From: a virus
Length of the DNA: 64,000 nt
Direction: 5' to 3' (one strand)
Virus record (IMG/VR): IMGVR_UViG_3300010354_000053
Location: 32,001 to 96,000 of that record
The position numbers were made by a program, and so were the translations under genes. Under the pieces are notes generated by a model, which saw only the letters and a list, made by a program, of their open reading frames with translations, was not told the origin of the DNA and searched no databases. Shown here one piece after another: positions 9,294 to 54,105 of this stretch; within the stretch, counting starts at the first letter, position 1, and each line of letters starts with the position of its first letter.

Positions 9294-9486
9294 TATCCTC
9301 TTTCTGGTTCATGCGAGGTTCTTTGTATGCTTTTTCTACACCATTCACAGCAGCCAATGCAATGGCTACAGACGCAATCGAGTTTGCAACATCCACATCA
9401 TTAACAAATCCTAGAATTGCTAAAATTGTGATTGTATAAAACGCAATTGCAGTCCGCCTGCAACCATTAAATGGTGTTAATAACAT
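9247..9486 (-). CDS. Putative holin
   Basis: 79 aa, two hydrophobic segments, charged C-tail, overlaps endolysin start. Confidence 0.6.
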   Translation of the reverse strand: MLLTPFNGCRRTAIAFYTITILAILGFVNDVDVANSIASVAIALAAVNGVEKAYKEPRMNQKEDIEYAGNGQKNKKTSS

Positions 9487-10028
9487 TACTTATATTTCTT
9501 CTTTAATAAAGAATGAGCCTTTTTAAGAGCTTCTGCACTTCCAAACCCTTGTTTTTTAACTGGTTTGTCGTTTACAGATTTTTCTTCGCCCATTCTTTCA
9601 GAATAATCACCTATCACATCAGACTCTGGAATTTCTCCGGCGACGGCGCCTTCTTTTGGTTTTTTTGGCAAAGCTGGATTTTTTGTTTGCTCTGCAGATT
9701 TTTCCATATCTTCTGTTTTTGCCATTGCAGTTTGTGATGACGTTTGCACCAAGGCGGGATTAGGTTCCATGCCTGGCATTGAACCGCCGGCTGGCATAGC
9801 CTGTTTTTGTAATTCTGTAGCTTTTTCCATACGTAGTTTATTAAAAACCTGAGCACGATCTTCAGCATCAACTTTTGGGATAACTTCATTAACTTTAGCA
9901 GGGCCTTTAATTTCTTCTACCGCTTGATCAACCGACAATCCTTTGCACATTTTGTGCATTTTTTTAAGATGTTGAACGCTCATTTTTTTCTCCAAAAAAA
10001 CCTTGACTTTTAATGAAATTAATGCCAT
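9486..10028 (-). CDS. Hypothetical protein, possibly head-packaged (MEKA/MEKS/LKKA motifs)
   Basis: Low-complexity; alternative start ATG 9983 with GGAG; GTGTATAATT upstream. Confidence 0.55.
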   Translation of the reverse strand: MALISLKVKVFLEKKMSVQHLKKMHKMCKGLSVDQAVEEIKGPAKVNEVIPKVDAEDRAQVFNKLRMEKATELQKQAMPAGGSMPGMEPNPALVQTSSQTAMAKTEDMEKSAEQTKNPALPKKPKEGAVAGEIPESDVIGDYSERMGEEKSVNDKPVKKQGFGSAEALKKAHSLLKKKYK

Positions 10029-10078: not shown

Positions 10079-11002
10079 ATGGCAATTGATTTAAGCAAAA
10101 TGACGTTTGGCGCTGAACTAGAACTTGGCGATGTTGATACAAAAATTATTCTGCCGCTAGGTAATAGATGGTGTGATAAAGATGGATCTATTTGTAATTC
10201 CAATGGAACTGCAAACGATCCGAAAAAAGTTTTTAATCGGTATGGTGGTGAGATTCAAATGAAGCCTGAAAACTCTCCGGAAGAGTTGCTTCGAGCCACT
10301 AAAGAAATCTACGACCTTCTGCCTAAAAAACACTTTAACTTTACCACTAATTTGCATGTTCATATTCGTATTCCCGGACTTAAGGATGACTTAGAGGCCC
10401 TAAAGAAAATTGCTGCGTATCTTCGTAAATATGACGAAGAAATTTATGAACTTATAGACCCAAATCCATTCCCAGAACGACAACTTAAATTTTCCAATCC
10501 TGACTTTTACAACGGCGCAGTCTCGAGATGGCGTCGTCGTAATAAGTCACATAGGTATCGGGTGACAGAAAAAGTTCATAAATTAATGATGAACGCAAAA
10601 TCACCACGCGAGTTCTACGAGGCTCACGCCCCTAAAAATCGTTTTGGACAACCAATGTGGCATGTTGTGGTCAGAGCCGGTGTGAATCTCAAACAAGTAT
10701 TTGAAGATACTGAAACTATTGAGTTTCGGCATTTTACAATGTCACCAGATCTAAATAAGATGTTGTCGGCATATAAGTGGCCTAGGCTTCTTATGGAAGC
10801 AATTTTTGTCACGGGGCACACACCGAAGCAGATTTTAGAAAACAATCCAGACTTGGTATTCCAAAATTTTCATCCGTATGATCACGAACTAGATAAAATC
10901 TTTAGGCAAACCAATGTTTACCATAACAAACGTTCCGAAGTGCGGGAAAACTATAAACGTTTAATTGAGCAGGGCCTAGTTGACGAACAGACTCTTTATT
11001 GA
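10079..11002 (+). CDS. Putative amidoligase (COOH-NH2 ligase, glutamine synthetase-like fold)
   Basis: TFGAELEL, GGEIQMKP, NLHVHI, TIEFRHF motifs. Confidence 0.85.
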   Translation: MAIDLSKMTFGAELELGDVDTKIILPLGNRWCDKDGSICNSNGTANDPKKVFNRYGGEIQMKPENSPEELLRATKEIYDLLPKKHFNFTTNLHVHIRIPGLKDDLEALKKIAAYLRKYDEEIYELIDPNPFPERQLKFSNPDFYNGAVSRWRRRNKSHRYRVTEKVHKLMMNAKSPREFYEAHAPKNRFGQPMWHVVVRAGVNLKQVFEDTETIEFRHFTMSPDLNKMLSAYKWPRLLMEAIFVTGHTPKQILENNPDLVFQNFHPYDHELDKIFRQTNVYHNKRSEVRENYKRLIEQGLVDEQTLY

Positions 11003-11009
11003 GGATTGC

Positions 11010-11462
11010 ATGAAAGTTTTATTTATTTGTACGGGTAACAAGTTTCGTAGTCCAACTGCGGAACATATTATGAAATGCCTAGCCCCGCATTTAGAAGTTA
11101 AATCGGCTGGAACAGCGGAAGGCGCTCATAAAAACTATTTAATGGCCAAAAAAATGCGTCGTTGTTTAATTGAATTAGGTTATCCTGAGCCCGCAATACG
11201 TTCTCAGCATCTGACGGCGGAATTAATGGAGTGGGCAGATATTGTTTTATATATGGCCCCTACACATTTCAACTATATGTACAAAAATCATGTCCAATTT
11301 ATACATAAATGCAGGCCGCTCTACACCGTCCTGCCAGACCTTGATTTAAAACGAATTGAAGACCCTGCTTTTATTAAAAAGCATGAAGATGTTATGGAAG
11401 TAACTAAAATTATTGAAGATTCGATTAAAAAAATACTAAACGATGAAGCAAAACTAATTTAA
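11010..11462 (+). CDS. Low-molecular-weight phosphatase (LMW-PTP/ArsC fold)
   Basis: VLFICTGNKFRSPTAE (CX5R), SAGT, WADIVLYM, IEDP. Confidence 0.9.
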   Translation: MKVLFICTGNKFRSPTAEHIMKCLAPHLEVKSAGTAEGAHKNYLMAKKMRRCLIELGYPEPAIRSQHLTAELMEWADIVLYMAPTHFNYMYKNHVQFIHKCRPLYTVLPDLDLKRIEDPAFIKKHEDVMEVTKIIEDSIKKILNDEAKLI

Positions 11463-11692
11463 ACTTCGGAATTACCGATCTTATTCTTTTGACGAGAACC
11501 TGTTGGAATAGATGTACCCGGAAGTTTAGGAGCTTCTGGCATTTTTATTTCTGAAGTTTTAACTGTAGTTTTTTTAGAAGTAGAAGATACAGAACCGTCA
11601 AGAATTTTGTACATTCTGTCTTGTACAGTTTCTGCAGGTGTGGATTTAGTCATTTTCTTGCACAGTTCGACTATTTCTAACAGTTTGTTCAA
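11459..11692 (-). CDS. Hypothetical protein (MTKS motif)
   Basis: Overlap-coupled small ORF in minus-strand operon. Confidence 0.5.
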   Translation of the reverse strand: MNKLLEIVELCKKMTKSTPAETVQDRMYKILDGSVSSTSKKTTVKTSEIKMPEAPKLPGTSIPTGSRQKNKIGNSEV

Positions 11693-12182
11693 GTTCGGCC
11701 TCTGTTACAATCCAAGGTGGTACGCAAACCATTTTATGCTCTATTTTACCATATTGGATATTAGATAAAAAAGGCTTCATGAGTTCTTGTTCATCTTGAT
11801 GGCGATTTTCTTTAATATAACCAATGTTATCGATATTTTTATCCAGTAATTTAGACATACAAGCCATACAAGGCTGAACACTCACAATAAATTGGTATTT
11901 ATGGATATTGATTGTTTGAATCATCTTTTCCAGAAGATCTGTCTCCGCATGGCGAATTAAGAATTTTTTAGCAGGATTTTTATCAATATTTAACTCGGCA
12001 AGAGCTTTTGAATTTTTTTCAAAAGCAGAAATTATCTTGTTAACGCCATAAGCAATAACAGAATTTGTGGATGTATCTACAGCAATTGCGACTACCTGAA
12101 CTAGAGGATCACTACTTCGTTTTTTAAGAACGTCAAATAGGATCTCGGTACTAACTACAGGGAAGGAGCCGTAGACAAACAT
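11646..12182 (-). CDS. Zn-dependent deaminase, dCMP/cytidine deaminase-like
   Basis: HAE and PCMAC motifs. Confidence 0.8.
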   Translation of the reverse strand: MFVYGSFPVVSTEILFDVLKKRSSDPLVQVVAIAVDTSTNSVIAYGVNKIISAFEKNSKALAELNIDKNPAKKFLIRHAETDLLEKMIQTINIHKYQFIVSVQPCMACMSKLLDKNIDNIGYIKENRHQDEQELMKPFLSNIQYGKIEHKMVCVPPWIVTEAELEQTVRNSRTVQEND

Positions 12183-12793
12183 TCTTTAATTCCTTGTTGT
12201 AGTTTTTGTACTACTTGTTCGGGTGAATCTTCAAAATCTACTTTTACGAGAGTAACAGGAGCGCGACATAAATCCAAGAAATAACCTACGCACATCTTTG
12301 CCCTATCCATAAACACTTGAACATTATTGAATGTCAAGTCAGGAAGTCTTTCTTCAACAATACCAGCATTTTTTCTTCGCAAAGAAAGACGTTCTCTAAT
12401 CTTTTCTACAGTAAAATCGTAGTGTACAACAACGACTTTAATGTCTTCTTTATGGCGATATTCATTAACCATTTCTACCCAACGAGACGTAGACATAACG
12501 CCATCGATAATAACTGTATCTGACAGCTCGAGAGCATCAAAGAAACCTGTTCTAACTAGCGATGGTGTAGTTATGGAATCTGTGCCAGAATTTTTATTAC
12601 CAACCAAAACACAATTATCATATTGAACAATACTATATTTCTGCTCAATTGTAGCTCCCCTGTTGGGCATACGTTTTTTAATAAATTTACCCATTTTAGA
12701 AATTTCTTTGCCATCTCCTTGGCAAAAAGTATTTCTGGTGGTGGTTTTGCCGGTTGCACCTGCGCCCATTAGAAAAATTGCTACTTTAGTCAT
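12155..12793 (-). CDS. P-loop kinase, probable 5-hmdU DNA kinase type
   Basis: GAGATGKTT Walker A, SGTDSI, VIIDG, lid RLSLRR; near amino acid:DNA transferase. Confidence 0.7.
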   Translation of the reverse strand: MTKVAIFLMGAGATGKTTTRNTFCQGDGKEISKMGKFIKKRMPNRGATIEQKYSIVQYDNCVLVGNKNSGTDSITTPSLVRTGFFDALELSDTVIIDGVMSTSRWVEMVNEYRHKEDIKVVVVHYDFTVEKIRERLSLRRKNAGIVEERLPDLTFNNVQVFMDRAKMCVGYFLDLCRAPVTLVKVDFEDSPEQVVQKLQQGIKECLSTAPSL

Positions 12794-13160
12794 GAAAGCC
12801 CTCAATATACTCTTGATTTGTTTTATGGCATTTAAAACAAATTCTGTTTCCGTTTGGTGAAAAGAAAACATTGTTGCATTTTAAACAATTTCTATTTTTT
12901 GCAATGGCAGAACCGTGTTCTGAAAAAAACTTCTCGTCCGCTTTTCGTAGTTCTTCCATAAGCTGTTTGTGTCGCTCTTTACGTCTATTTGACGTTCGCT
13001 CTTTATTCTTTTTTATTTTTTCTGTTAAATCAATCCAGTTTAAATTATGTTGAATAACATAATTTTGCATGAATGATTCATGATTATCAATGGATGGTAC
13101 TGGAATATTGAGAGTTTTGCAAAACATTTTTAATGTAATTTTAGTTTCATTAACAATCAT
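12786..13160 (-). CDS. Hypothetical protein with C-terminal Zn finger
   Basis: CLKC...RICFKC. Confidence 0.6.
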   Translation of the reverse strand: MIVNETKITLKMFCKTLNIPVPSIDNHESFMQNYVIQHNLNWIDLTEKIKKNKERTSNRRKERHKQLMEELRKADEKFFSEHGSAIAKNRNCLKCNNVFFSPNGNRICFKCHKTNQEYIEGFHD

Positions 13161-13170
13161 TACTCTGCCC

Positions 13171-13500
13171 TTATTCTAATTCAGCACCCATGTCTACGAT
13201 ACCTTCTTTCTGCAACAACGAAAGGGCTAACACTCGTTTAGAATCTGCAAAATTTCTTGTTTCATTGAAGGCACTGCGAAAAGTTTGCAGAACTTCTTGA
13301 GCAGCTTTAAATTCCGAATTAGCTTCCATTTCTTTCTTTGCCTTCAAAACATGCGCATTCTGTTCTGCAATGATCTGTTTTAGTTTATCGACGTTATAAG
13401 TTTTTAGCATTTGCAATTCATCGTAAGAATAATTCTTTACAAACGCTTTTTCAATATCACTCAGATGGCTGTACTTATTTGACTTACTCTTCTTTCTCAT
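13171..13500 (-). CDS. Hypothetical coiled-coil protein
   Basis: GGAGG RBS, overlap with upstream gene. Confidence 0.6.
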   Translation of the reverse strand: MRKKSKSNKYSHLSDIEKAFVKNYSYDELQMLKTYNVDKLKQIIAEQNAHVLKAKKEMEANSEFKAAQEVLQTFRSAFNETRNFADSKRVLALSLLQKEGIVDMGAELE

Positions 13501-14360
13501 TTAACATCCTCCACAAAAAGTAATTGTTTCGTTTTAATGTATGCAGTTTTTTCTTTTACTGAAAAATGGTGTTGTAAAAACTTATGATCAAATTCACATT
13601 CATCTATTAAATTCCAAAATACGTTATCTGAATACAATTCTGGTTTTTTAAGAACTAAAAATTCATTAATGTCATGTCCAACTACATAACTCCCCTTGTG
13701 CAGTATTTTAGGCACTTTACACAAACAGCTTTCTACTTGACCAATCGGCGCGTTCCAAATTTTTGATAAATTCCAACCCAAAGCTTCCCATTCTGGGATT
13801 ATGTCTTTAGTAAATTTTTGATTAATACCATATAGGTAACGAAGTCCAAATACTGGTCCAGTATTTTTGTTAGGATCAGAGCTTTCGATTCCTAACCCAT
13901 TAATACGAAAGCTTTTATATCCAAGCGTTTGATCCATGAGTTCACAAGTTTTATAGCAGGCCCAATCACCAAAATATGGAATAGTCTTGAATAACTCTCT
14001 TCCGCTGTTAAAATCTAACTGCTCTGTTTTAAGCGTTGATTCAACTGTTAACCATCTATCAAAAGCTTTTTCAAAATTTTCAGTTCGTCGCACTTGTGGT
14101 GTTCGACCACGTTCCATTCCAAACTTACTGATTTTTTCAAACATCTGAATGGGTGTTTTACCTTCAGCAATTCCCCGCATGAATAAAACCATGCTTTCGA
14201 TAGAATAGTAATATACGTACATGAAAATTGCGGTTTCGGGGTCAAATTTTTCGTGATTAATAATTGATTTTAGAAAAGGATAAACAGGGTCAACATCTTG
14301 TGTGCGAATTAAAGCTAAGCTAGCCTTCTCGAAATCAGAAAAGTTAAATAGATGTTGCAT
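13497..14360 (-). CDS. Amino acid:DNA transferase (aGPT-Pplase2 / HhH-glycosylase-like family)
   Basis: QDVDPVY, GMERG, PYFGDWACYKTCE, QVESCLCK, GSYVVGHDI. Confidence 0.8.
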   Translation of the reverse strand: MQHLFNFSDFEKASLALIRTQDVDPVYPFLKSIINHEKFDPETAIFMYVYYYSIESMVLFMRGIAEGKTPIQMFEKISKFGMERGRTPQVRRTENFEKAFDRWLTVESTLKTEQLDFNSGRELFKTIPYFGDWACYKTCELMDQTLGYKSFRINGLGIESSDPNKNTGPVFGLRYLYGINQKFTKDIIPEWEALGWNLSKIWNAPIGQVESCLCKVPKILHKGSYVVGHDINEFLVLKKPELYSDNVFWNLIDECEFDHKFLQHHFSVKEKTAYIKTKQLLFVEDVK

Positions 14361-15249
14361 ATAAATACTCTTGAACGCCGTCAGCAAGTTCTTTAATGTA
14401 TGTTGGAGCATGGCGTAAGCCGTTTGCAGATTTTGGAGTTACATACATACAATTACCTTCTTGAATAAACGCATGTAAATAGTCTTCCATATAAGCTGGC
14501 CTCCAGCCTGTTTTTGGCTCTCCCGTTATTTCAATACTTACCTGGCCATTGGTTACTTTAGAAATATGCTCAATAATTTTTTGAATTTTATCTTTAATTT
14601 CTAAATCTTTTTGTTCTTTTTGATAAATAAAATGAGTACCAAGATAATAGGCATCGGTAGTGGGTTTTGGATATAGATACGCATTAATAAAACGACCTTC
14701 TTTTGCATTTAAACAAAATCTTGGATAACGATCAAATACTTCTCCGCTTGGCTTGCACTCTACCGACCATCCCCAACGATAATCGGTAGGTTTATATTTA
14801 TGAAAACCATTAGCGTGAATAATAAGGCGATTTGTTGGAGTTTTATTTATGCGAGAAGAAAAGAAAAAATCTTGGGTAAACTGCACAAACGCTTGTACAT
14901 TAACATGCATTGATTGTTTGTTTAAAACTTTAATATTACCTATAGTTTGCACGTACCTGAGTTCTTTAGAATTATTATGATGCGGAATGCTTTTTTGGGT
15001 ATATCCGTAAGGGACAGCTTCTGAAAAAAGAATAATTGGTCTGCGGTCTGTTTGGCTGAACGATTGTAGCCAAAGGTTATAATTAATTGCATCTAGCTCT
15101 TCACCTGATGGGTAAATACACCCAGTACTTGCCTTCCATGCACCGGGTGAATCGTCGTCTTCCCACGAAAACATAATTTTTCTACTAGTAAGCTCCCAAG
15201 CAAGAAGTGAACCAATCAATCCAAAGCCTTTAATATGTACTGTAGACAT
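14344..15249 (-). CDS. FAD-dependent oxidoreductase (DAO/glycine-oxidase-like)
   Basis: IKGFGLIGSLLAWEL (GxGxxG), GAWKASTG, GWRP, NGLRHAP. Confidence 0.8.
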   Translation of the reverse strand: MSTVHIKGFGLIGSLLAWELTSRKIMFSWEDDDSPGAWKASTGCIYPSGEELDAINYNLWLQSFSQTDRRPIILFSEAVPYGYTQKSIPHHNNSKELRYVQTIGNIKVLNKQSMHVNVQAFVQFTQDFFFSSRINKTPTNRLIIHANGFHKYKPTDYRWGWSVECKPSGEVFDRYPRFCLNAKEGRFINAYLYPKPTTDAYYLGTHFIYQKEQKDLEIKDKIQKIIEHISKVTNGQVSIEITGEPKTGWRPAYMEDYLHAFIQEGNCMYVTPKSANGLRHAPTYIKELADGVQEYLYATSI

Positions 15250-15265
15250 TTTTTAATTCCCGATT

Positions 15266-15736
15266 TTAGTACGGACCAAATGCTCCTCCGCCTCCGCGGC
15301 GCCGCGATGGCACTGCATTCTGGCGTTGTTGTTCTTCCCACTCCCTCTGCAACTCCTCTTGTGTTGCCGTTAGTACTGGCGACGGCGTGCGTTGATTCGC
15401 CGCCGTTGTCCCGTTTCCCACAGGTTGCTGCTGTTTTGGTGTAGGAGAAGAAAGATTTTGGTTAATTCGTTGCAATACTTCCACTACAGGATTGCTAGAA
15501 ATTTCTTTAAACAGAGCCGCTAGCTTTACTGCCTTTTCTTCTACTTCGGATATTGCTTTAGCCGTTTCTGGATTGTTATTTTCTAGTAATTGCTCCAGCA
15601 CAATGTTTAGGCTTTTTTGAATATGCCCCCAAAGAAATTCTCCGCTAGGAAGGGTCAAAATGCCCTCTTTAAGAGCTTCATTCTCGAGAGCCGATTGAAC
15701 ATCGCTCAGTAATTTAATTTTTTCTTTCTTGTCCAT
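15266..15736 (-). CDS. Hypothetical protein
   Basis: GAGGG RBS; follows recA. Confidence 0.6.
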   Translation of the reverse strand: MDKKEKIKLLSDVQSALENEALKEGILTLPSGEFLWGHIQKSLNIVLEQLLENNNPETAKAISEVEEKAVKLAALFKEISSNPVVEVLQRINQNLSSPTPKQQQPVGNGTTAANQRTPSPVLTATQEELQREWEEQQRQNAVPSRRRGGGGAFGPY

Positions 15737-15737
15737 A

Positions 15738-16826
15738 TCATCCCTCGTAAATATCAGCATTCATAGCAATACCCATGTTTTTTGAAGTAAATACTTCTTG
15801 CTTGATTTTGGCGTATAGGTTTTCATCCATTTTGACCAAATCTACAAACTTAGACATATTTCCCCCCTTGATTCCAAGCTCCTCCGGGCCAAAATAAATT
15901 GTGTTTCCTGTTTCTTTTTTATAGAGAACACCGAGATTAAGAGCTAGCTCAACAAGTTCTTCGTATTGGTTAGCTAGTTCGCCACTTTCCATATTTAACC
16001 AGAATTCAGCAGCTTTGCCCTCGACAGTAAGGCGCGTTTTATTAACTTTGCAGCGAACCTTAGAACCGACTGCAATATTCTTGCCTTGGCCGTCTTTGGA
16101 TTCGGAGACCAGCTTGTCCTTCATGCCAGTTGCCTTTTCCAAAAAAATAATAGTCGAGCATAGGTGTTTTAGCCGTTGACCGCCAGTAAGCACCCATGGA
16201 TAGTACTTAGCCATACGGGTATCGAGGTTTGCCATAGCATGGTTAGTAAGCACGACCAACACTTCGCACTCGTTAGCAATACGGTTTAATACGTTTAAGG
16301 CTGGATTGATGCTTTTAGAAATACCACCGTATCCATTAGCAGCACCGCTAACATCGCCTTCTTCCATTGCCCCCTGTTCGCCAAGTGCAGTAAGAGCTTT
16401 AACGGAATCAAGGACAATTGCGCAACAATCCTTGTTTTTTTTGATTTCCTCTTCTGCCTTAGCTAGAGGCTTAATAGCACCTTCAAACGTGTTTGATTGA
16501 ATAACTACCAGACGGTCGAGATCAACACCTAAACTGGCTGCACGTTCGGGGTTAAACGCATATTCTGTGTCGATAAATATGCCGTATTTAGTTGGATTCA
16601 TCCGCTGTTCTTGTGCAAGCAGCTTTAGAGCCATAAGACTTTTACCCGAGCCGGGTGAACCCCACAGCATAACTAGTTCACCGACCGGAATACCACCGCC
16701 TACGGCCCAGTCAAATGAAACCGAACCGGTAGAGCGAACTTGTTTTTGTTTATTAGAAAATTCTTTGGCTACGGCTACTCGCTCCATTTTTAACATTGAC
16801 GATAAATAACTTGGTAGTTTTGACAT
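15738..16826 (-). CDS. recA: RecA/UvsX recombinase
   Basis: STGSVSFDWAVGGGIPVG, GSPGSGKS, FIDTEYA, IVLDSV, TGGQRLKH. Confidence 0.93.
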   Translation of the reverse strand: MSKLPSYLSSMLKMERVAVAKEFSNKQKQVRSTGSVSFDWAVGGGIPVGELVMLWGSPGSGKSLMALKLLAQEQRMNPTKYGIFIDTEYAFNPERAASLGVDLDRLVVIQSNTFEGAIKPLAKAEEEIKKNKDCCAIVLDSVKALTALGEQGAMEEGDVSGAANGYGGISKSINPALNVLNRIANECEVLVVLTNHAMANLDTRMAKYYPWVLTGGQRLKHLCSTIIFLEKATGMKDKLVSESKDGQGKNIAVGSKVRCKVNKTRLTVEGKAAEFWLNMESGELANQYEELVELALNLGVLYKKETGNTIYFGPEELGIKGGNMSKFVDLVKMDENLYAKIKQEVFTSKNMGIAMNADIYEG

Positions 16827-16834
16827 TTATTACC

Positions 16835-17305
16835 TCATGCACGGATGCTGATATTGTTAAAGTTAGTACGGCCATAAATATTTTTCTTAACATCATCTAT
16901 GGAAATTGATAGCACTGAACGGACTGAAGATAAATAAGAATAAACGCTCTCCCAATATGCTTCATCCTCTTGTGCCATTTGATATTCTGGTTGAATACAA
17001 ATAAATGCCTGTTTATCTTTTTCTGTGGGTTTTTGTAGATTTTTTTCAGCCGCCCATTCGGGGAATTTTTCAATTCGTAATACCGATTCAATTCGTTCCT
17101 TTTCAATCTTTGATTTAGACAAAGAGTATTGTGCTTTAGTCATTAGCTCAGAAATGGCAAGCAGTCCTTCACGCATTGACTGTAAAAACACAGGAGCGTC
17201 GTGTTCGCTAACTTGCACAGATTGTTTGCTCTTTGCAATAAAAGGAGCAAGTTGATTAGCGATCATGTTCATTTGATCGCGCTTAGAAACAACTTCTGAT
17301 GCCAT
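16835..17305 (-). CDS. UvsY-like recombination mediator
   Basis: Helical, KPTEKDKQAFI...PEYQ pattern; between SSB and RecA. Confidence 0.5.
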   Translation of the reverse strand: MASEVVSKRDQMNMIANQLAPFIAKSKQSVQVSEHDAPVFLQSMREGLLAISELMTKAQYSLSKSKIEKERIESVLRIEKFPEWAAEKNLQKPTEKDKQAFICIQPEYQMAQEDEAYWESVYSYLSSVRSVLSISIDDVKKNIYGRTNFNNISIRA

Positions 17306-17322
17306 ATGTCCACCTAATATAT

Positions 17323-17350
17323 AAAAAAACCGACCAAATGCATGGTCGGT
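17323..17350 (-). terminator. Rho-independent terminator after SSB
   Basis: ACCGACCA/TGGTCGGT stem with T run on the minus strand. Confidence 0.75.
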
Positions 17351-17373
17351 CAAAAACAAATTATTGAGTACTA

Positions 17374-18291
17374 TTAGAAGGGATTCCAGTTCTCATCATC
17401 TGTGCTGTCAAAATCAACAGATGCAGAACTTGCAGCCGGCTTACTACTACCTTCTTCTCCACTGTTAGCAGATTTGCGGAGTAAACGTTCAGGAAGTTCT
17501 GTGCCACCAGACGCAACAAATGCAGCCATTTCATCTTCACTCCAAAGGCGAGAAGCAAACATTTGCACTAAATCGATCATCTTTTCTGGATCTTTGAGGC
17601 GATCTTTAACAGAATTAGGGAGTGTTTGCTCATAAAGCATTTCGGTTTTTTGGCGACCAACCATCTTTGATTCAACGCAAAGATCTGCGGAATAACGAGT
17701 GTCGAGCTTTTCTCCAGTTTTATTTAATACCATCCAACCAGTAGGCTCAGAAGGATTGTAAACTTGTGCGTTATAATCTTTAAATTTATGCACAACACCA
17801 CTGATTTTTTTGCCGGCGTCACCAAAGATAGACTTGATCAACGAAGTTTTAGCATCAAGTACCGAAATCTTGTCGTCGCCGCGAAGAACAACAAGAACAG
17901 AGAATCTACGTTTTTGCTCAAAGGATTTAGCAAGCGTAGAGTGGTTCAAGTATTTTTCATGCATCTTATGACCAGGGGCTTTAGCACCCATTTCTTCGAG
18001 CTTGACGGCTTCATCGCGGTGCTTCCAATGAGCATCGCAGATAGAACACGTTTTGCCAACAGAGCGAGGGCATGGAATACGCATGTATTCACCATTCAAA
18101 GTGTATTCATGGAAATGGTTTTCTGCGTATGGACGAGGTTTACCAACATGTTGATTAACAACTACACGCAACGTAAGTGGCCAAGTAGTGTTTTTAGCAC
18201 CGCCAACATAGTTGATTTTTTCGCGTTGTTCTTTTTGTTTACCAACAGAGAAGTCTTCATTTTCAAGAAGTGAATAATCAAAATTTTCCAT
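17374..18291 (-). CDS. Single-stranded DNA-binding protein, T4 gp32-like
   Basis: H...CPRSVGKTCSICD Zn site, KTGEKLDTRY, acidic tail DFDSTDDENWNPF. Confidence 0.75.
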   Translation of the reverse strand: MENFDYSLLENEDFSVGKQKEQREKINYVGGAKNTTWPLTLRVVVNQHVGKPRPYAENHFHEYTLNGEYMRIPCPRSVGKTCSICDAHWKHRDEAVKLEEMGAKAPGHKMHEKYLNHSTLAKSFEQKRRFSVLVVLRGDDKISVLDAKTSLIKSIFGDAGKKISGVVHKFKDYNAQVYNPSEPTGWMVLNKTGEKLDTRYSADLCVESKMVGRQKTEMLYEQTLPNSVKDRLKDPEKMIDLVQMFASRLWSEDEMAAFVASGGTELPERLLRKSANSGEEGSSKPAASSASVDFDSTDDENWNPF

Positions 18292-18304
18292 TTTACGGCT
18301 CCTT

Positions 18305-18931
18305 TTAACGGTATTGAAATTTAGCTAGCGACGGATTCATTGAATTATTAGCAGCAGCGGTTACTCTTGATAACTCGATGCCTTCTTCGATTGTTTTGAT
18401 CACGGTTGCAATTTTTTCTTCTTGCGACTTTTTACCACCCCCTTTTGGTACGGCAATTACGGTTCTTGACAAACGACTATTAAGTGGTGTGCGTCGAAAT
18501 GTGTAAAATACGTTTGATTGTAGCTCACCAGTTCTAAAAATTTGAGAAACGCTAATGTTATCTTGTTGCAAAGTTAGATCTTCTACGATTCGCATAAAAT
18601 CACGATTGCTTTCAATTTTTTTAGAAACTCGACTCGTATCAGGGGTTCTGCGAAGAGCTGTCGTGCCGGAAAATAATTTAAGGCAATTAGCAAAAAGGAC
18701 GTTCGCTTCAGTTGCAGAAATTTCAAATGGCATCTCTCTACTTAGAGATGCCGCGTATCCTTTTGTTTTCATTTCTTCCGCCATTTGAATTGCGTAATCA
18801 GAAACGTATCCAAGTTGGATGGGTGAATATTTTTCAACACCTTGAATAATAACTTGAGCTTCATCTTCTTTAAGATCTGATAAATCTATGATTACTGGAA
18901 TTGAATAAGAACGGTCGTACATAACGGTCAT
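18305..18931 (-). CDS. Hypothetical protein
   Basis: AGGAG RBS, ATGA overlap. Confidence 0.65.
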   Translation of the reverse strand: MTVMYDRSYSIPVIIDLSDLKEDEAQVIIQGVEKYSPIQLGYVSDYAIQMAEEMKTKGYAASLSREMPFEISATEANVLFANCLKLFSGTTALRRTPDTSRVSKKIESNRDFMRIVEDLTLQQDNISVSQIFRTGELQSNVFYTFRRTPLNSRLSRTVIAVPKGGGKKSQEEKIATVIKTIEEGIELSRVTAAANNSMNPSLAKFQYR

Positions 18932-25193: not shown

Positions 25194-25861
25194 TGATAAT
25201 GATCACGGACGATATTTATAATAAAAGCATTTATCCGCAGTGCGATTTTAGCATCATTGAATTGCCCCTTGAGTCCAAAGACGCTAAAAAAATGTACCAG
25301 CAGCTGTATAAAACTCAAAAAAATAACCATATTTCCCTTCAATACAGCAGACTTCCAAAAAAACTGCGCCTCAAAGCTATGAGCAATGTTTATTTGGGCG
25401 ATGAAATTGGTTTTAAATTTTATGATTATATAACAATTGTTTCGCAGCAGCCGTGTAGGCAGCCTCCTAATCATTTATCCCCACTTGGAGAAGTCGGCAT
25501 CTTATTTACTAAGAACGAAGAGCCGAATACTAAAACAACCAACTGGTTTAATCCCGAAATTGGCGATTGCACAAACGTTTGGGATGTTAGTTTTCAGCCA
25601 AAAGAGGGAAGCGGGCAGACTGTATCAAAAAAATTTGCGTGGGAGATAGGTTATCTTTTAGCAAATTTAGCGAGTCCGCTCATTTGTAGAAAATTTTTAA
25701 TACTGGGTCTGCCTGAGTTGTCAATGGCAAGGTTTGCATTACATTCAAACTTGCAAATGTATGCAATAACTTCAGATGAGTTTACGGCTAATAAAATTAT
25801 CAAAGATTATGATAAGGCGTGTAAAAGCGAGGTACAGGATAAATCATGGCAAAAGAAATAA
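25163..25861 (+). CDS. Degenerate beta-class N4/N6 DNA methyltransferase homolog
   Basis: Motif order kept (GFKFYDYITI, EVGILFTK, TNVWDV, KFAWEIGYLL) but DPPY and FxGxG are lost. Confidence 0.5.
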   Translation: MQITSADGRIVIMITDDIYNKSIYPQCDFSIIELPLESKDAKKMYQQLYKTQKNNHISLQYSRLPKKLRLKAMSNVYLGDEIGFKFYDYITIVSQQPCRQPPNHLSPLGEVGILFTKNEEPNTKTTNWFNPEIGDCTNVWDVSFQPKEGSGQTVSKKFAWEIGYLLANLASPLICRKFLILGLPELSMARFALHSNLQMYAITSDEFTANKIIKDYDKACKSEVQDKSWQKK

Positions 25862-27456
25862 AATATGGACACGAGGCAAGAAATAAAGCCGTTCAAGCAT
25901 TGGAAGAAATTTCCTATATTGTTGGCAGTACTCTTGGGCCTGGTGGTAAAACTGTTCTTTTAAGTCGTCGTAATTCTGCCGATGAAATTTCTGTTTCTCA
26001 TACTAAAGACGGGTTTAATGTATTAAACAGTTTGCGTTATACCGATCCGGTATTTGACGCCGTGCATAAACTTTGCCTACAGGCTAGTGCAAACTCGGTT
26101 GTGTCATCCGGAGACGGCACAACTTCAACTATTGTAATGGCTGCAGCTTTTGCTAAGGCTCTGGTCAATAGTGGAAATAATCCACAGGCGGCAGCTCGAA
26201 AGTTTCGCAAAGAAATTCAAAATGCTATAGAGGCTATTAAAAGCGAAGCTGTGGCTAGTGATGAAGCAGTTTATAAAGTGGCGCTTACTAGTGCTAACGG
26301 AGATGAGGAGCTTACTAAGTTTGTAATGGATGCAGTATCTCAAAGCTCAGCTTATGGAACTGTAATTGTAGAAAAGAACCCTATGTCTAAAGATCCTTAT
26401 AGGATTGATAAGGAATACGGTTACCAAGCTGGCACAGGATACAGCTATTATCTGCCATTTGCGCAAAGCATTCGACCAAACTTAGCAAATAATGCCGAGT
26501 TTACTCTTAAAAAATGCCATGTATTGCCATATAACGGCGACCTAATGATGATGTCTCAAGTTAAGCCAATGCTGGAGTCTTTAGCAAGAAATGCAACCGG
26601 TGGATGGAACTTATTGATTATTTGTCATCAGATTGCTGAAGATTTGGCTGCAAATTTGGCATTTTTTAATCGACAAAACCCTAATGCAAAAGTGTTTGTT
26701 GTAAGAACCACGCCCTCGGCAGAGCTGAATGGGCAGGTCCAACAACTTAATGATATTGCCTCGTATACTGGGGCAAAAGTTATGGATGGGGGCAGTTTAA
26801 CTCACTTGGTGATAGAAGATTTTGGCGACTGCCAGTCAGTTCGGATTGGACCACATAAAACTTTCATCTTAGGCAAATCTGAACGTAATTGGATTATTGA
26901 GCGAGCAGAACAAAATGAAGAATCGGCTCGCCTAGCACCAAGCCAAATGGATCGTGACATCATTCATTCCCGTAATGCATCGCTGACTGGTGGTTGTGTC
27001 AAGCTTATTATTGGCGGTTCGTTAATGAGTGATCTACAAGAACGAGCCGACCGTGCTGATGACGCTATTAAAGCTTCGCAAGCTTGTTCACGCTCAGGAG
27101 CTCTGCCGGGCTGCGGTGCATCGTACATGCGAGCGGGGCAGCAAGCTAAGGTTTCTGAATCCGTACAGACAGCGCTTGCGAGCATTCATAATGTGATTAT
27201 GACAAATTTTGGCGAAACGCCTATGAAGCATTTTGATAAAAATCAAACATATTATATTACCGACAATGATATCCAAAAGGTCGAAAACTTTTTAGACCAT
27301 GGAGTTGCTGATAGTTTTGAAACTATTCGGTCAGTTATCACAAACGCCTTTGAACTAGGTTTGTTGGTGACAAATTTAGGTGGATATAGCCTTGAAGCAG
27401 ATTTAGATCAAATGGAGCAGGCGGCAAGGGCTAAAGAAATTTTAAGAGGCGTATAG
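25846..27456 (+). CDS. groEL: Phage chaperonin, GroEL-like
   Basis: MAKEIKYG, TLGPGG, TKDG, GDGTTS, ERADRADDA, GALPGCG. Confidence 0.93.
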   Translation: MAKEIKYGHEARNKAVQALEEISYIVGSTLGPGGKTVLLSRRNSADEISVSHTKDGFNVLNSLRYTDPVFDAVHKLCLQASANSVVSSGDGTTSTIVMAAAFAKALVNSGNNPQAAARKFRKEIQNAIEAIKSEAVASDEAVYKVALTSANGDEELTKFVMDAVSQSSAYGTVIVEKNPMSKDPYRIDKEYGYQAGTGYSYYLPFAQSIRPNLANNAEFTLKKCHVLPYNGDLMMMSQVKPMLESLARNATGGWNLLIICHQIAEDLAANLAFFNRQNPNAKVFVVRTTPSAELNGQVQQLNDIASYTGAKVMDGGSLTHLVIEDFGDCQSVRIGPHKTFILGKSERNWIIERAEQNEESARLAPSQMDRDIIHSRNASLTGGCVKLIIGGSLMSDLQERADRADDAIKASQACSRSGALPGCGASYMRAGQQAKVSESVQTALASIHNVIMTNFGETPMKHFDKNQTYYITDNDIQKVENFLDHGVADSFETIRSVITNAFELGLLVTNLGGYSLEADLDQMEQAARAKEILRGV

Positions 27457-51265: not shown

Positions 51266-53185
51266 CTAGAATAAAATAGTTGCACTACCCGATTTTAACA
51301 TTTTTTCTGCGTCTTCTTCGTTCTTTTTCTTAATATCTATATTGTATTCAGAAGCATAATGAATACGCAATGCTTCTTGCATGCCTTCTACTGTAGTAAA
51401 ACTAGGCTTTTTAGTATAATCAAACTGATCAGCCTGCGAAGCCTGAATTACCGATGCATTGCTGGTTATAAATGGATCGATTGCATATCGAAGAGCGTCA
51501 GGACCATGGGTGAAATCGTCATCAGCAAATCGCGAGTAATCATACCCCATTGCCCCCTTAGCGTATGTCCAGTTTTCCATGCATTTAATTAAAAACAAAT
51601 TTTTGGGGTCATCTAATATGATGAAATGCGCCTGTTGTCTCATTGCGTTCCATAATTTTGAACGAATCCATGATACGCCAGTATCAATAGTTAATGGTTT
51701 TTCTCCCCTAGCAGGCATATTCATGCTCCCCGCTACAGAAGTTGAAGATTTGTCGGCTGTGTCTGGACACAGGAGGTCAAATCCGTACTTAAGATAAATG
51801 TTTTCTTTCACAAAAGCAAGCCAGTCCGGATTTGCGTAACCGGTTGAATGTTCTGTATGGAGAACAAGCATTTTATCGTCTGATTTTTTATATGCTATCA
51901 AAATAGCTACTGCTGGGTCAATGAATCCAAAGTCAACACCACAATGCAATCGCCAGCCATTTGCTCTTAGTTCTCTAATTAATTCATCTTTTGAAATATC
52001 ACGTATGTTGCCAAATCGATCTGTAGGAAAGGTACTGAAGGCAAAGTTCCAACATTCTTGGACTGTCTTTACATGAATATTACGATTGAATTTATTGAAC
52101 ACAATACCCGAAGACTCAGGTTTTAAGTTAAGAATCTGTGCGTTAATCTTATCTGGATCGCCGGCATTGAGCAGAGTATTCTTAACAAAGCCTAAGTCGC
52201 GTAGCATTTTTGATTTAGATTGTTGTTTAACTGATTTTGTTCGACAAATAGAAAATACAGGACATGTTTTGCAGCCTTCATATGCCAATATAGATGAATA
52301 TACAGCCTTAGATTCCGGATTAAGAGCATTAAATGCATTATTTGGCAATACTTCTAGCGTCTCGGGATGGACATGGAGCATACTTTGCGGTAAATCGGGC
52401 TTATGGCGCTCGGGTGGACATGTTTGCATCCAATCTACAATAGACCATTTGTGTAGTCTGATGCCTGAATTTGGCATATCTGCTTCGTCAATTTTTTGCT
52501 GGATTGGTCCAGAACCAGATTTTCTGGACGACAAGTAAATAAAGATTGGCGGTTTACCAGAGCGGTCAGGGTCAGCAATGAAAGTTGCCTCAGAAAGAAT
52601 ATCTTTATCAATGAGGTCTAGCTCATCGAAAATGAGGCATGATGCACGTTGGGCGTTTGCAGACTTTTTAGTTGATACAACGACTTGTAGTTTGCTATAT
52701 CCAACGGGACGATGAGGTGATGGTGGTAATCTATTAAGCTCTTTTATTCGTTTACTATCAGTTTTTGCGAAATTAGAAATAATCGGCAAAGCGAGGTGCT
52801 TGTCCAAATAACGAATTGCGGCCAAAGATTGGTCTAAAATTGCTGCCATGTGGACTATATCTCTGGCAAAATGAACCATAAGTAAGAATTCAATAATAGA
52901 AGATGCTAATGTTTTTGCTGAGTTACGGCTTGCAGCTACAACGAACGTTGTTCTGTTGGGATCGCCGTCTTTAGCGGCAGAATAAACGTCCCAGATAAAA
53001 TCCATTGGATTAGAATTACTATTATCATCTACGGTGCAGTCCGGTAAATCAATATCTAAAAATGTCTTAATCCACTGCTTAAGCTGAGCTTTACTTTCAC
53101 AAACAGCAAAAAATTGCTCTTCATACAGCTGATTTAACGCTGCATTAAGCTGATTTTCATTTGTTAATTGCTGTTTTTTATTCAT
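51266..53185 (-). CDS. Terminase large subunit
   Basis: ASRNSAKT Walker A, LIFDELD, GVDFGFIDP, HGPDALRY. Confidence 0.92.
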   Translation of the reverse strand: MNKKQQLTNENQLNAALNQLYEEQFFAVCESKAQLKQWIKTFLDIDLPDCTVDDNSNSNPMDFIWDVYSAAKDGDPNRTTFVVAASRNSAKTLASSIIEFLLMVHFARDIVHMAAILDQSLAAIRYLDKHLALPIISNFAKTDSKRIKELNRLPPSPHRPVGYSKLQVVVSTKKSANAQRASCLIFDELDLIDKDILSEATFIADPDRSGKPPIFIYLSSRKSGSGPIQQKIDEADMPNSGIRLHKWSIVDWMQTCPPERHKPDLPQSMLHVHPETLEVLPNNAFNALNPESKAVYSSILAYEGCKTCPVFSICRTKSVKQQSKSKMLRDLGFVKNTLLNAGDPDKINAQILNLKPESSGIVFNKFNRNIHVKTVQECWNFAFSTFPTDRFGNIRDISKDELIRELRANGWRLHCGVDFGFIDPAVAILIAYKKSDDKMLVLHTEHSTGYANPDWLAFVKENIYLKYGFDLLCPDTADKSSTSVAGSMNMPARGEKPLTIDTGVSWIRSKLWNAMRQQAHFIILDDPKNLFLIKCMENWTYAKGAMGYDYSRFADDDFTHGPDALRYAIDPFITSNASVIQASQADQFDYTKKPSFTTVEGMQEALRIHYASEYNIDIKKKNEEDAEKMLKSGSATILF

Positions 53186-54105
53186 AGCCCATAATACTTG
53201 CGGTTTCTTCCTTTTCCTTCAAGGAGACTGCAATATTTTCTAAACTCGCAAGCAATTCCTTCAATATTACAAGTTGTGATTAGTATTTTTTTATCATCCT
53301 TAGCTAAATAAGGAAAACTATCAACTGGTTGGTGTTTCATCAGAGTGAAGGCAACGTCTTCAGGTTTAGCTTTAGGATTGAGTATCTTACAAGTAGGGGC
53401 TGCTCCGCGACCCATTTCTAAATATTTAAACTCATCAATATATTCGGGAAATTGATAACCAAAATCCATCATAATTTCTGTCATATGGAATGGATTTTTA
53501 AACCCTAGAATACTATGAATGCTATTTGTAAGATACTGTATGCTGTGTTTTTTGTTTGACATCAACAAATCATAAATAGGATGAACAAGTTCTGGTAATT
53601 TTTCATACAAAAATTCTTCGCGATTTTTAGCCCCAATAATTGACAATCCTGCTTGCGGAAACAAATAGGCTGTATTAAATTTAGGACCTTCTATTGAAGA
53701 AAACCTAGTTCTGGATTCTAAATTTTCAGATTTATCTAGGGAAATATTACCAGTAATTTGAAGAGTGCTAGGCATATTAATATATCTAGCAAACATTATA
53801 TTAAGTAATGCTAGTTTTTTATCGTGAAGGCACGGTTGTAGCCACTCGTGAATCCACAATGAAACCTTATCAAGTTCTCTATAACAATTAGTGAAATAAT
53901 TTCTGTTTAAAATTACATCTTCAGTCCATGGTCTAGGTTGTCCACTATCCTTAAGATGAAAGATTTTCATTCTTTCGATTGCAAAATCCCAGTACCTTTG
54001 CTCAATCGCTGAATCTATTGCAACTTCTCGACCGTTCATCCATCCAAATTCTTGGTATTGGTCAAAATGTTTATATAAATTTAAAGCTTTAGCTTTTGCA
54101 CTCAT
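53182..54105 (-). CDS. aGPT-Pplase1 / 5-hmdU DNA kinase helical-domain family protein
   Basis: ERMKIF...GQPRPWTEDVIL..YFTNCYRELDKVS, FARYIN, GRGA, NIEGIACEFRKY. Confidence 0.82.
   Translation of the reverse strand: MSAKAKALNLYKHFDQYQEFGWMNGREVAIDSAIEQRYWDFAIERMKIFHLKDSGQPRPWTEDVILNRNYFTNCYRELDKVSLWIHEWLQPCLHDKKLALLNIMFARYINMPSTLQITGNISLDKSENLESRTRFSSIEGPKFNTAYLFPQAGLSIIGAKNREEFLYEKLPELVHPIYDLLMSNKKHSIQYLTNSIHSILGFKNPFHMTEIMMDFGYQFPEYIDEFKYLEMGRGAAPTCKILNPKAKPEDVAFTLMKHQPVDSFPYLAKDDKKILITTCNIEGIACEFRKYCSLLEGKGRNRKYYGL

Follow-up and report, generated by a model that had tools for sequence, protein, structure and literature searches.

The large, uncultured phage to which the analysed window belongs (64,000 nucleotides of a 104-kb virus record that is 64% complete) probably makes a DNA base that nobody has identified, since an uncharacterised amidoligase and a low molecular weight (LMW) phosphatase are encoded where a relative has an acetyltransferase. 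The locus encodes thymidine hypermodification of the M6/PaMx11 type, as the first-pass annotation had proposed from the sequence, and this would take place after replication. Analysis of open reading frames and protein families has confirmed the six genes that it had described between positions 10079 and 15249, with the amidoligase-phosphatase pair converging on minus-strand genes for a candidate 5-hmdU DNA kinase, an amino acid:DNA transferase (AADT), a D-amino-acid-oxidase-fold flavoenzyme and a zinc deaminase (Table 1), and a fold or family was assigned to each of the six proteins. The kinase follows the AADT, as annotated, with two small conserved ORFs intervening; the 124-aa ORF gave no match in Pfam and PHROG, and the 109-aa ORF no significant match in family searches. 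The earlier starts of kinase and AADT have been corrected to internal Met codons, and upstream of the Met27 of the kinase there is an in-frame stop in relatives L002 and L003. Locus synteny is kept in relatives L002-L005. A further hypermodification gene (HMUDK_hel), missed before, was also found.

Table 1. Features of the hypermodification locus and the distant HMUDK_hel gene (positions in the window).
Feature	Coordinates	Strand	Remarks
Amidoligase	10079..11002	+	ATP-dependent carboxylate-amine ligase, GS/GCL/YbdK fold; 307 aa from ATG at 10079
LMW phosphatase	11010..11462	+	150 aa from Met11; next after amidoligase; LMWPc 56.3 bits
Conserved 77-aa ORF	11459..11692	-	End of minus-strand operon; homologs at same position in L002, L003, L004, L005
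Zinc deaminase, cytidine/dCMP deaminase superfamily	11646..12182	-	Candidate dCMP or 5-hm-dCMP deaminase
P-loop kinase, candidate 5-hmdU DNA kinase	12155..12793	-	212 aa from Met27
Conserved 124-aa ORF	12786..13160	-	C-terminal CxxC...CxxC; homologs in L002-L005
Conserved 109-aa ORF	13171..13500	-	Homologs in L002-L005, 46-96% identity
AADT, aGPT-Pplase2 clade	13497..14360	-	287 aa from Met18
FAD-dependent amine oxidase, DAO/glycine oxidase/MnmC family	14344..15249	-	Candidate N-alpha-glycinyl-thymidine oxidase, giving 5-aminomethyl-dU
HMUDK_hel (5-hmdU DNA kinase helical domain, formerly aGPT-Pplase1)	53182..54105	-	PF18723; 38 kb from cluster

We observed enzyme folds or families, gene linkage, gene fusions and a slot replacement, and from these we infer all the chemical steps, the amino acid, the ligated acid and the phosphatase substrate. 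The P-loop kinase would phosphorylate 5-hmdU in the phage DNA, probably helped by the HMUDK_hel protein, and the AADT would swap the phosphate for an amino acid, most likely glycine. The flavoenzyme would then oxidise the N-C-alpha bond to give 5-aminomethyl-dU, whose amine is capped in PaMx11, and probably in L005, by a GNAT acetyltransferase. Here the amidoligase would instead use ATP to turn a free carboxylic acid into its acyl phosphate and ligate the acid to the base-borne amine, and the tightly coupled LMW phosphatase would act on the ligation product, most likely removing a phosphate of the ligated acid. This N-acylation, suggested already by the first-pass annotation and leading to an N-acyl-aminomethyl-dU of undescribed kind, best fits the comparative data because of the acetyltransferase in the equivalent slot of L005 and the mutually exclusive modules described below, and we give it somewhat better than an even chance.

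Pfam searches with AADT, kinase and flavoenzyme gave no direct match. PF18724 is matched by 14 of the 19 sequences aligned with the AADT, and the AADT family profile matches PDB entries 8z2m/25qc (E 8e-6), the former being PaMx11 gp46. The hhalign comparison with gp46 (92%) covered the phosphate pocket with its D/E residues as well as the motif E-V-E-(S/T)-x-L-C-K, catalytic and pocket residues being taken from PMC11472151. An actinophage 'aGPT-Pplase2 domain protein' is 26% identical to the AADT. The kinase has the Walker A motif GAGATGKT and aligns with a PF18748-type kinase cluster (hhalign 94.3%, E 1e-7); kinases of such pathways had been described in the first-pass annotation as pyrophosphorylating 5-hmdU, but the product of 5-hmdU DNA kinase is the monophosphate, 5-PmdU (PMC8989533). 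The HMUDK_hel gene matches PF18723 (77.2 bits, E 1.8e-21), and in M6-like loci (cluster 15) this family comes next after the kinase.

The flavoenzyme has an N-terminal GxGxxG at residues 8-13, and its model (pLDDT 94) matches D-amino acid oxidase (DAAO, Z 23.4), the FAD domain of MnmC and glycine oxidase (both Z 21.2-21.4). The gene adjoins the AADT gene in L002-L005 and L007-L009, with the kinase gene intervening in Gordonia phages. Members of the family are fused with a P-loop kinase (P0185) or with a GNAT (P0073), and the latter fusion argues for an amine as the probable substrate of the capping step. Sequence alignment with PaMx11 gp47 is limited to the Rossmann motif, which counts against N-acylation.

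The amidoligase scored 19.9 bits (E 7e-4) against Pfam Amidoligase_2, under the cut-off of 22. For its AlphaFold model (pLDDT 95) the top 19 PDB matches were all glutamine synthetase (GS), glutamate-cysteine ligase (GCL), YbdK, PafA or Dop (Z 5.6-10.5), and those thereafter had Z <=4.1; the best was YbdK-type 1tt4 (Z 10.5, VIA-align). Residues E17, E19, E62, H97, H99, R203, E219 and R221 are invariant in 38 homologs. PafA, also among the matches (Z 8.9), couples a carboxylate with an amine that a macromolecule carries, which speaks for an amine as substrate, and so does the 27%-identical amidoligase homolog of Vibrio phage 2.275.O (a genome without AADT match), which adjoins QueF/QueC/FolE, a pathway that makes aminomethyl-deazaguanine. 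Ligation by the GS/GCL fold does not require a phosphatase, and this counts against N-acylation. The LMW phosphatase is intact, with CxGNxxRS and DP invariant across the family, and an ArsC-type Cys pair was looked for in it and found absent.

The pair appears from genomic context to be a dedicated part of thymidine hypermodification, because of its co-occurrence with AADT, gene adjacency, fusions, the GNAT in the equivalent L005 slot and module exclusivity. Amidoligase homologs are present in 50 viral records, most of them fragments <25 kb, and 45 of these records also have an AADT Pfam match (PF18724), 43 over the curated cut-off; close relative G001 is a false negative, its AADT being found by tblastn (88% identity). 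Of 49 unique loci, 30 have the phosphatase gene directly after the amidoligase gene, with a 4-nt overlap in 26; the two are fused in L048 and L053, and homolog P0055 is an amidoligase fused to a 5-hmdU DNA kinase. The pair lies within the operon in most loci, the commonest layout being a single operon with, in this order, GATase, glycosyltransferase, amidoligase, phosphatase, AADT and kinase. In three unique loci a GNAT rather than the phosphatase comes after the amidoligase, so that ligase and acetyltransferase are not plain alternatives, a point against N-acylation.

The more distant relative L005 (AADT 48% identical) has kinase, deaminase, AADT and FAD genes as in the window, and in the slot of the pair it carries a convergent GNAT, which is 31% identical to PaMx11 gp48 (E 1e-9) and comes directly after the homolog of the 77-aa ORF. 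Acetyltransferase, PLP decarboxylase and radical SAM genes had not been seen at the locus in the first-pass annotation; neither GNAT nor radical SAM genes were found in the 104-kb record (G000) or the complete 169-kb relative G002, but a PLP enzyme (Alliinase_C/aminotransferase) is encoded in the genome, outside the window. Three modules occur around amidoligases and never together: GATase (30 loci), DAO (5) and PLP/radical SAM (6). The window has the DAO-type combination, rarer among amidoligase loci, and its cassette lacks both TET/JBP and GATase, which were recovered with the same amidoligase family in cassettes of TET/JBP, GATase, glycosyltransferase, amidoligase, phosphatase, AADT and kinase. 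DAO and PLP/radical SAM modules strip the carboxylate from the amino acid, so that a primary amine is left (PMC8989533), and the GATase might supply ammonia toward such an amine.

In the GATase-type cassettes, however, the ligase could just as well use ammonia from the GATase to amidate a carboxylate, which counts against N-acylation. The amidoligase would then activate the carboxylate of the AADT-installed amino acid (e.g. N-alpha-glycinyl-thymidine) and add ammonia or another amine, so that an amide results, for example a glycinamide side chain, and the amine of 5-aminomethyl-dU would not be its substrate. In 30 of 49-52 unique loci the amidoligase is preceded, at a distance of one or two genes, by a class II GATase, which agrees with this, as do the activation of carboxylates by GS/GCL-fold enzymes and the combination of GATase with an acyl-phosphate-forming ligase, the classic carboxamide route. 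We consider it unlikely: the window, G002 and all DAO or PLP/radical SAM loci lack a GATase, the oxidase or decarboxylase of the latter loci removes the very carboxylate needed, and the kind of GNAT seen in the L005 slot has an amine as its substrate in PaMx11 (PMC8989533). Among the neighbours of T-dioxygenases, PMC13229309 names GATases, kinases and AADTs and leaves amidoligases unmentioned, a hint that the GATase serves the transferase.

Plain 5-aminomethyl-dU might also be the end product, and the pair would then work beside the pathway, making or recycling a small-molecule substrate, or with the phosphatase resetting unreacted 5-phosphomethyl-dU to 5-hmdU, a chemically reasonable role for an enzyme that ligation does not need. 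Such an end product is suggested by the AADT-kinase-oxidase set of Gordonia phages, e.g. CaiB, whose block of ParB, a weak sub-threshold Tet_JBP match, AADT, kinase and FAD oxidase has no capping enzyme. We regard it as rather improbable, because the fusions of the ligase to phosphatase and to DNA kinase, the position of the pair inside the operon in most loci and its occupation of the slot of the gp48-like acetyltransferase argue that the ligase acts on a DNA-borne intermediate.

The precursor supply is probably unusual. A dUMP hydroxymethylase had been expected elsewhere in the genome, but the enzyme of close relatives appears to be cytosine-type: the sole thymidylate-synthase-family gene of G001 and complete G002 encodes, at the position of Asp179 in T4 dCMP hydroxymethylase, an Asp as well, and a SNYG motif, is T4-sized and looks dCMP-specific, whereas in the four proven 5-hmdU phages the residue is always Asn and the protein has 347-383 aa (PMC6400193). 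The deaminase (dCMP_cyt_deam_1, 30.5 bits; HAE and PCxxC motifs) has viral dCMP deaminase families as nearest Atlas clusters, no BLAST similarity to PaMx11 cd, and a place beside the kinase kept out to L005. Since these relatives have a cytosine-type hydroxymethylase only, the cluster deaminase may turn 5-hm-dCMP into 5-hm-dUMP, and 5-hmdU may arise in this way, its source in the partial window genome being taken from relatives. The same hydroxymethylase would fit 5-hmC in DNA, with kinase, AADT and later enzymes acting on 5-hmdC, but modification of cytosine is very improbable given that the AADT retains the Glu and Ser/Thr holding the thymine-O4-bound metal in PaMx11 gp46 (PMC11472151), that the conserved deaminase could provide 5-hm-dUMP, and that 5-hmdU is the substrate of all characterised AADTs and 5-HMUDKs (PMC8989533).

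Amidoligases have been noted in such clusters before (Lee et al. 2021, PMC8989533), and neither this work nor PMC13229309 gives the amidoligase a function; in the text searched, the LMW phosphatase partner is not described. The metavirome amidoligase/amidotransferase clusters of the former and the T-dioxygenase neighbourhoods of the latter share the toolkit with the window in other combinations. YbdK, GCL, GS and the Pup ligase PafA share with the amidoligase the fold (Z 8.4-10.5) and the conserved acidic, His and Arg set, but the phage-specific enzyme is far smaller, lacks a sequence-level PDB match, is linked to DNA-modifying enzymes and is paired with a phosphatase. In PaMx11, 5-acetylaminomethyl-dU is made by gp49 (5-hmdU DNA kinase), gp46 (glycine:DNA transferase), gp47 (FAD N-alpha-GlyT oxidase) and gp48 (acetyltransferase) (PMC8989533, PMC11472151). 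Kinase, AADT and DAO/GR2-fold flavoenzyme are common to both systems, the AADTs align at the catalytic residues (Glu, Ser/Thr, Cys, Lys) and at those of the phosphate pocket (Asp, Glu), and L005 even has the gp48-like GNAT. The window differs in its very divergent proteins, the deaminase inside its cluster, the cytosine-type hydroxymethylase of its relatives, a genome of ~169 kb with a DnaE-type polymerase and, in G000 and G002, the pair in the slot of the acetyltransferase. The proposed flavoenzyme reaction would be the DNA analogue of that of the MnmC FAD domain, which converts cmnm5U to nm5U in tRNA (PMC8989533); the two align across 284 residues in structure with undetectable sequence similarity, and the phage enzyme stands alone, without methyltransferase domain, with DNA instead of tRNA as proposed substrate.

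Two convergent gene groups were found at positions 10079-15249 of the window, which covers bases 32001-96000 of an IMG/VR viral record of 104,757 bp with a CheckV completeness of 64%. The first-pass annotation had described this region as a hypermodification locus with an amidoligase and a phosphatase, and this observation was confirmed, the six genes being identified by family or fold; its interpretation of them was supported in part. A direct Pfam match was obtained at the locus only for the phosphatase (LMWPc, PF01451, 56.3 bits) and the deaminase (dCMP_cyt_deam_1, 30.5 bits). No match to phage records was found with the locus by megablast, and the deaminase gave no BLAST alignment with PaMx11 cd. 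Full synteny was observed in the loci L002, L003 and L004 of viral relatives (AADT identities of 88% and 73%), and in the more distant locus L005 (AADT 48% identical) it was kept except for the plus-strand pair. In L003 and L004 (73% AADT identity) the amidoligase is separated from the counterpart of window ORF 9486-10028 by about 4.4 kb of extra DNA, at 14320-18702. A GroEL-like chaperonin is also encoded in the window at 25846-27456 on the plus strand (phrog_5725, E 1e-71).

Genes of the locus and other features of the viral record (window positions, unless another coordinate system is named).
Feature	Position	Strand	Identification
DnaE-type DNA polymerase III alpha-like, 977 aa	5074-8007	+	phrog_405, E 1e-151
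Amidoligase	10079-11002	+	GS/GCL fold
LMW phosphatase	11010-11462	+	LMWPc
77-aa ORF (last of minus-strand group)	11459-11692	-	
Zinc deaminase	11646-12182	-	dCMP_cyt_deam_1
P-loop kinase	12155-12793	-	Walker A, hhalign
Small conserved ORF	12786-13160	-	
Small conserved ORF	13171-13500	-	
AADT	13497-14360	-	family profile, hhalign to gp46
Flavoenzyme (first transcribed of minus-strand group)	14344-15249	-	DAO fold
UvsX/RecA recombinase, upstream of locus	15738-16826		
HMUDK_hel (5-hmdU DNA kinase helical domain), 38 kb from cluster	53182-54105	-	PF18723, 77 bits
PLP enzyme, 351 aa, outside window	L090:5534-6589 = genome 101534-102589		Alliinase_C, 105 bits, and Aminotran_1_2

At a threshold of E 0.01, Pfam gave no match for the window AADT itself. 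PF18724 (aGPT-Pplase2) was matched by 14 of 19 aligned AADT-family sequences, and the family profile found PDB entries 8z2m and 25qc (E 8e-6), the first of which is the solved glycinyltransferase gp46 of PaMx11. When the AADT was aligned to gp46 with hhalign (92%), residues E227, S228, C231, K232, D247 and E250 corresponded to E243, T244, C247, K248, D262 and E265, and E227, C231, K232, D247 and E250 were invariant in the AADT alignment. The gp46 residues form a metal/O4 site, a base-clamping residue and a phosphate pocket, the last with Asp262 and Glu265 (PMC11472151). Judged by its sequence, the protein is a candidate AADT, predicted to transfer an amino acid onto 5-phosphomethyl-dU in DNA. 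Its C-terminus (window 13497-13540) and those of the nine closest aligned homologs share a (Q/K/H/R/T)-L-L-F-(V/C/S) ending, mostly followed by acidic residues, which resembles a sliding-clamp-binding motif; this tail is absent from all other enzymes of the locus.

The kinase, whose gene is separated from that of the AADT by two small ORFs, contains a Walker A motif, and its start was placed at Met27 because an in-frame stop is present upstream of this codon in the relatives. No direct Pfam match and no tblastn match in phages were found for it, and pairwise BLAST with the kinase domain of the metagenome protein P0055 was not significant (E 0.13). At the family level, hhalign aligned it with a PF18748-matching cluster of 5-hmdU DNA kinases (M6 gp54-type) at 94.3%, with E 1e-7 over 126 columns.

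Profile searches of the PDB with the amidoligase and flavoenzyme alignments gave nothing useful, so fold comparison was needed for both proteins. About 220 representative clusters make up the distinct family of the flavoenzyme, whose model (pLDDT 94) revealed a two-domain DAO fold. The model matched D-amino acid oxidase (DAAO) with Z 23.4 over 283 residues; for glycine oxidase and the FAD domain of MnmC, Z was 21. The glycines of the N-terminal GxGxxG (G8, G10 and G13) are conserved. With PaMx11 gp47, hhalign aligned a 33-residue Rossmann motif alone, at 15% probability. The tie between this family and the pathway is supported by two metagenome proteins in which it is fused, once to a GNAT (P0073, 456 aa) and once to a P-loop kinase (P0185, 643 aa), and the same family is located beside AADT and kinase genes in Gordonia phages. 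In the cultured actinophage CaiB (Gordonia phage, ON108644; L012:1-3926) a five-gene block encodes ParB, an oxidoreductase-annotated protein whose Tet_JBP match is weak and below cut-off (19.6 bits), AADT, kinase and FAD oxidase. No capping enzyme is encoded in this block, which is a tractable system for asking whether 5-aminomethyl-dU is an end product.

The amidoligase scored 19.9 bits with Pfam Amidoligase_2, under the curated cut-off of 22 that a few homologs passed (metagenome protein P0056, 29 bits; viral locus L048, 23.6 bits). The best 19 PDB matches of its model (pLDDT 95) were all carboxylate-amine ligases (YbdK, GCL, glutamine synthetase, PafA, Dop), with Z 5.6-10.5 and then a sharp fall to 4.1. 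An alignment of 38 homologs showed no variation at E17, E19, E62, H97, H99, R203, E219 or R221. An arginine-kinase/phosphatase pair of the McsB-YwlE kind was considered as the main reading and rejected, since the Z values for phosphagen-kinase folds (3.6-4.0) were far below those for GS/GCL ligases (8-10.5). The phosphatase family retains the CxGNxxRS and DP motifs, the C, G, N, R, S and D being invariant in 27-35 homologs, with very little variation at the P of DP. An ArsC-type arsenate reductase was discarded for this protein, the family alignment containing no further conserved Cys that could complete a redox Cys pair.

The amidoligase-phosphatase pair is part of the hypermodification pathway. 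When 63 viral loci were collected with amidoligase peptide patterns alone and 50 records, mostly fragments under 25 kb, were tested for PF18724, this AADT family was found in 45 (43 above the curated cut-off), and one of the five misses was the genome of a relative (G001) in which the AADT was detected by tblastn only. Such genes are present in roughly 1 in 2000 phages (Lee et al. 2021, PMC8989533). The phosphatase is the next gene after the amidoligase in 30 of 49 unique loci, with a 4-nt overlap in 26. Both enzymes form a single polypeptide in the viral loci L048 and L053, and in metagenomic P0055 the amidoligase (35% identical, E 6e-52) is fused to a PF18748 kinase. No longer amidoligase fusions (546-2000 aa) were found, in a search that counts as weak evidence. 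Unbiased neighbour-gene clustering revealed a dominant operon with the order TET/JBP, GATase, glycosyltransferase, amidoligase, phosphatase, AADT and 5-hmdU kinase. Rarer layouts were M6-like (AADT, PLP enzyme, amidoligase, radical SAM, kinase) or PaMx11-like (AADT, DAO, amidoligase, phosphatase, kinase, HMUDK_hel, thymidylate-synthase-like gene and PolA).

Two observations point to a base-borne amine as the substrate of the ligase. In L005 the kinase, deaminase, AADT and flavoenzyme are kept, and the slot of the amidoligase-phosphatase pair is filled by a 184-aa GNAT, which immediately follows the homolog of the 77-aa ORF in convergent orientation. This GNAT shares 31% identity with gp48, the 5-aminomethyl-dU acetyltransferase of PaMx11. 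In addition, amidoligase loci contain a GATase (30), a DAO (5) or a PLP enzyme/radical SAM module (6), two of them never being found together. The DAO and PLP/radical SAM enzymes strip the carboxylate of the appended glycine to leave a primary amine, as in PaMx11 and M6 (PMC8989533), and a GATase could yield the same amine by supplying ammonia. A ligase needing the amino-acid carboxylate would compete with the DAO and PLP/radical SAM enzymes, whereas one requiring an amine fits all three contexts, so an amine is favoured. On the basis of the GNAT slot and the mutually exclusive modules, N-acylation of 5-aminomethyl-dU by the ligase was rated highest among the readings, and the balance of probability leans modestly towards it. 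Amidation of the appended amino acid, for which a carboxylate-amine ligase would need the very carboxylate that DAO and PLP/radical SAM remove, is unlikely, and a role of the ligase and phosphatase beside the DNA is slightly less likely still.

The first-pass annotation had seen no acetyltransferase, PLP decarboxylase or radical SAM gene. This held for GNAT (PF00583), without match in the record and in the relatives G001 and G002 and present in the genome of L005 (G004), and for radical SAM, which like GATase_6 had no match in family searches of the record and G002. It did not hold for PLP enzymes, as an Alliinase_C/aminotransferase protein, kept in the relatives G002 and G003, is encoded outside the window; it could serve in substrate supply or tailoring for the hypermodification. 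A further lead towards an amine substrate is an amidoligase homolog with 27% identity in Vibrio phage 2.275.O (MG592671; L013:5866-6978), directly upstream of genes for QueF-like, YhhQ, QueC, Ntn-hydrolase and FolE proteins, which form a 7-deazaguanine DNA modification cluster, in a genome with no PF18724 match. The QueF/QueC/FolE pathway leads to aminomethyl-deazaguanine, and from this gene context the amidoligase family may also decorate that base.

A phosphatase is not required for ligation through an acyl phosphate. The gene directly after the amidoligase encodes a GNAT in place of the phosphatase in three unique loci, and we infer that phosphatase and GNAT might both trim the ligated moiety, by phosphate removal from a phosphorylated acid or by acetylation of a new amine. 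Clearing of residual 5-phosphomethyl-dU by the phosphatase is possible, although it is a poorer explanation of the fusions.

The dUMP hydroxymethylase that the first-pass annotation expected elsewhere in the genome did not appear: no thymidylate-synthase family (PF00303) match was found in the 104-kb record (64% complete). TET/JBP was not detected above cut-off in the record or in G002, the sole match being one of 17.8 bits in the latter. One PF00303 gene of 235-244 aa is present in each of G001 (L010:1291-2025) and the complete, 169-kb G002 (L011:1306-2013), flanked by structural-looking genes. Its closest relatives are T4-type hydroxymethylases; it shares SNYG (Ser94/Tyr96) with T4 and has Asp at the position of T4 Asp179 (PYD versus RND in T4), the specificity residue of T4 dCMP hydroxymethylase (PMC6400193). 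The enzymes of M6, SPO1, ViI and PhiW-14 (347-383 aa) have Asn there (TS Asn177). In the simplest reconciliation, dCMP would be hydroxymethylated and the cluster deaminase would then convert 5-hm-dCMP to 5-hm-dUMP; if true, 5-hmdU nucleotides would be reached by a second route, through an Asp-type hydroxymethylase together with this deaminase. Hypermodification of cytosine instead of thymine would also agree with the Asp-type enzyme, but the thymine O4-holding residues of gp46 are retained in the AADT, and this points to a uracil-type substrate rather than 5-hmC. The cytosine alternative is rated very improbable.

A plausible if tentative reading is that a GS-fold ligase acting on DNA joins an amino-acid-like or phosphorylated carboxylic acid to the aminomethyl group of 5-aminomethyl-dU, whose 5-hmdU precursor would in this lineage come from dCMP hydroxymethylase and a dedicated 5-hm-dCMP deaminase, and that the coupled or fused LMW phosphatase trims the adduct to give a new amide-bearing, peptide-like base; the module would serve any primary-amine base (5-aminomethyl-dU, 5-aminoethyl-dU, perhaps preQ1-DNA). 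The end product of the locus is likely to be a DNA base not yet identified. Hypermodification protects phage DNA against restriction and other nucleases and has been a source of biotechnology enzymes. If the proposal of a ligase acting on a base-borne primary amine is right, ATP-dependent amide ligation would join the known DNA-acting chemistry, and a family of undescribed bases is predicted in many uncultured phages.

The association of amidoligases with such clusters is not new, since Lee et al. (2021, PMC8989533) reported them to be accompanied by amidoligase and amidotransferase genes of unknown function. That remark becomes a testable proposal, with a base-borne primary amine as likely substrate, an LMW phosphatase as obligate partner, a natural comparator in which an acetyltransferase occupies the slot of the pair, and a short list of genes for reconstitution. 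In the literature searched, which did not cover Iyer et al. (2009, 2013), no prior report was found of the phosphatase as an obligate and sometimes fused partner, of an acetyltransferase taking the slot of the pair, of the mutual exclusivity of GATase, DAO and PLP/radical SAM modules or of the cytosine-type hydroxymethylase. With respect to known systems, the locus differs from the PaMx11-type 5-AcNmdU pathway in the capping GNAT, a PaMx11 feature without PF00583 counterpart in the record, G001 or G002, and its core is a divergent member of the same kinase/AADT/flavin pathway described for PaMx11 (PMC8989533, PMC11472151).
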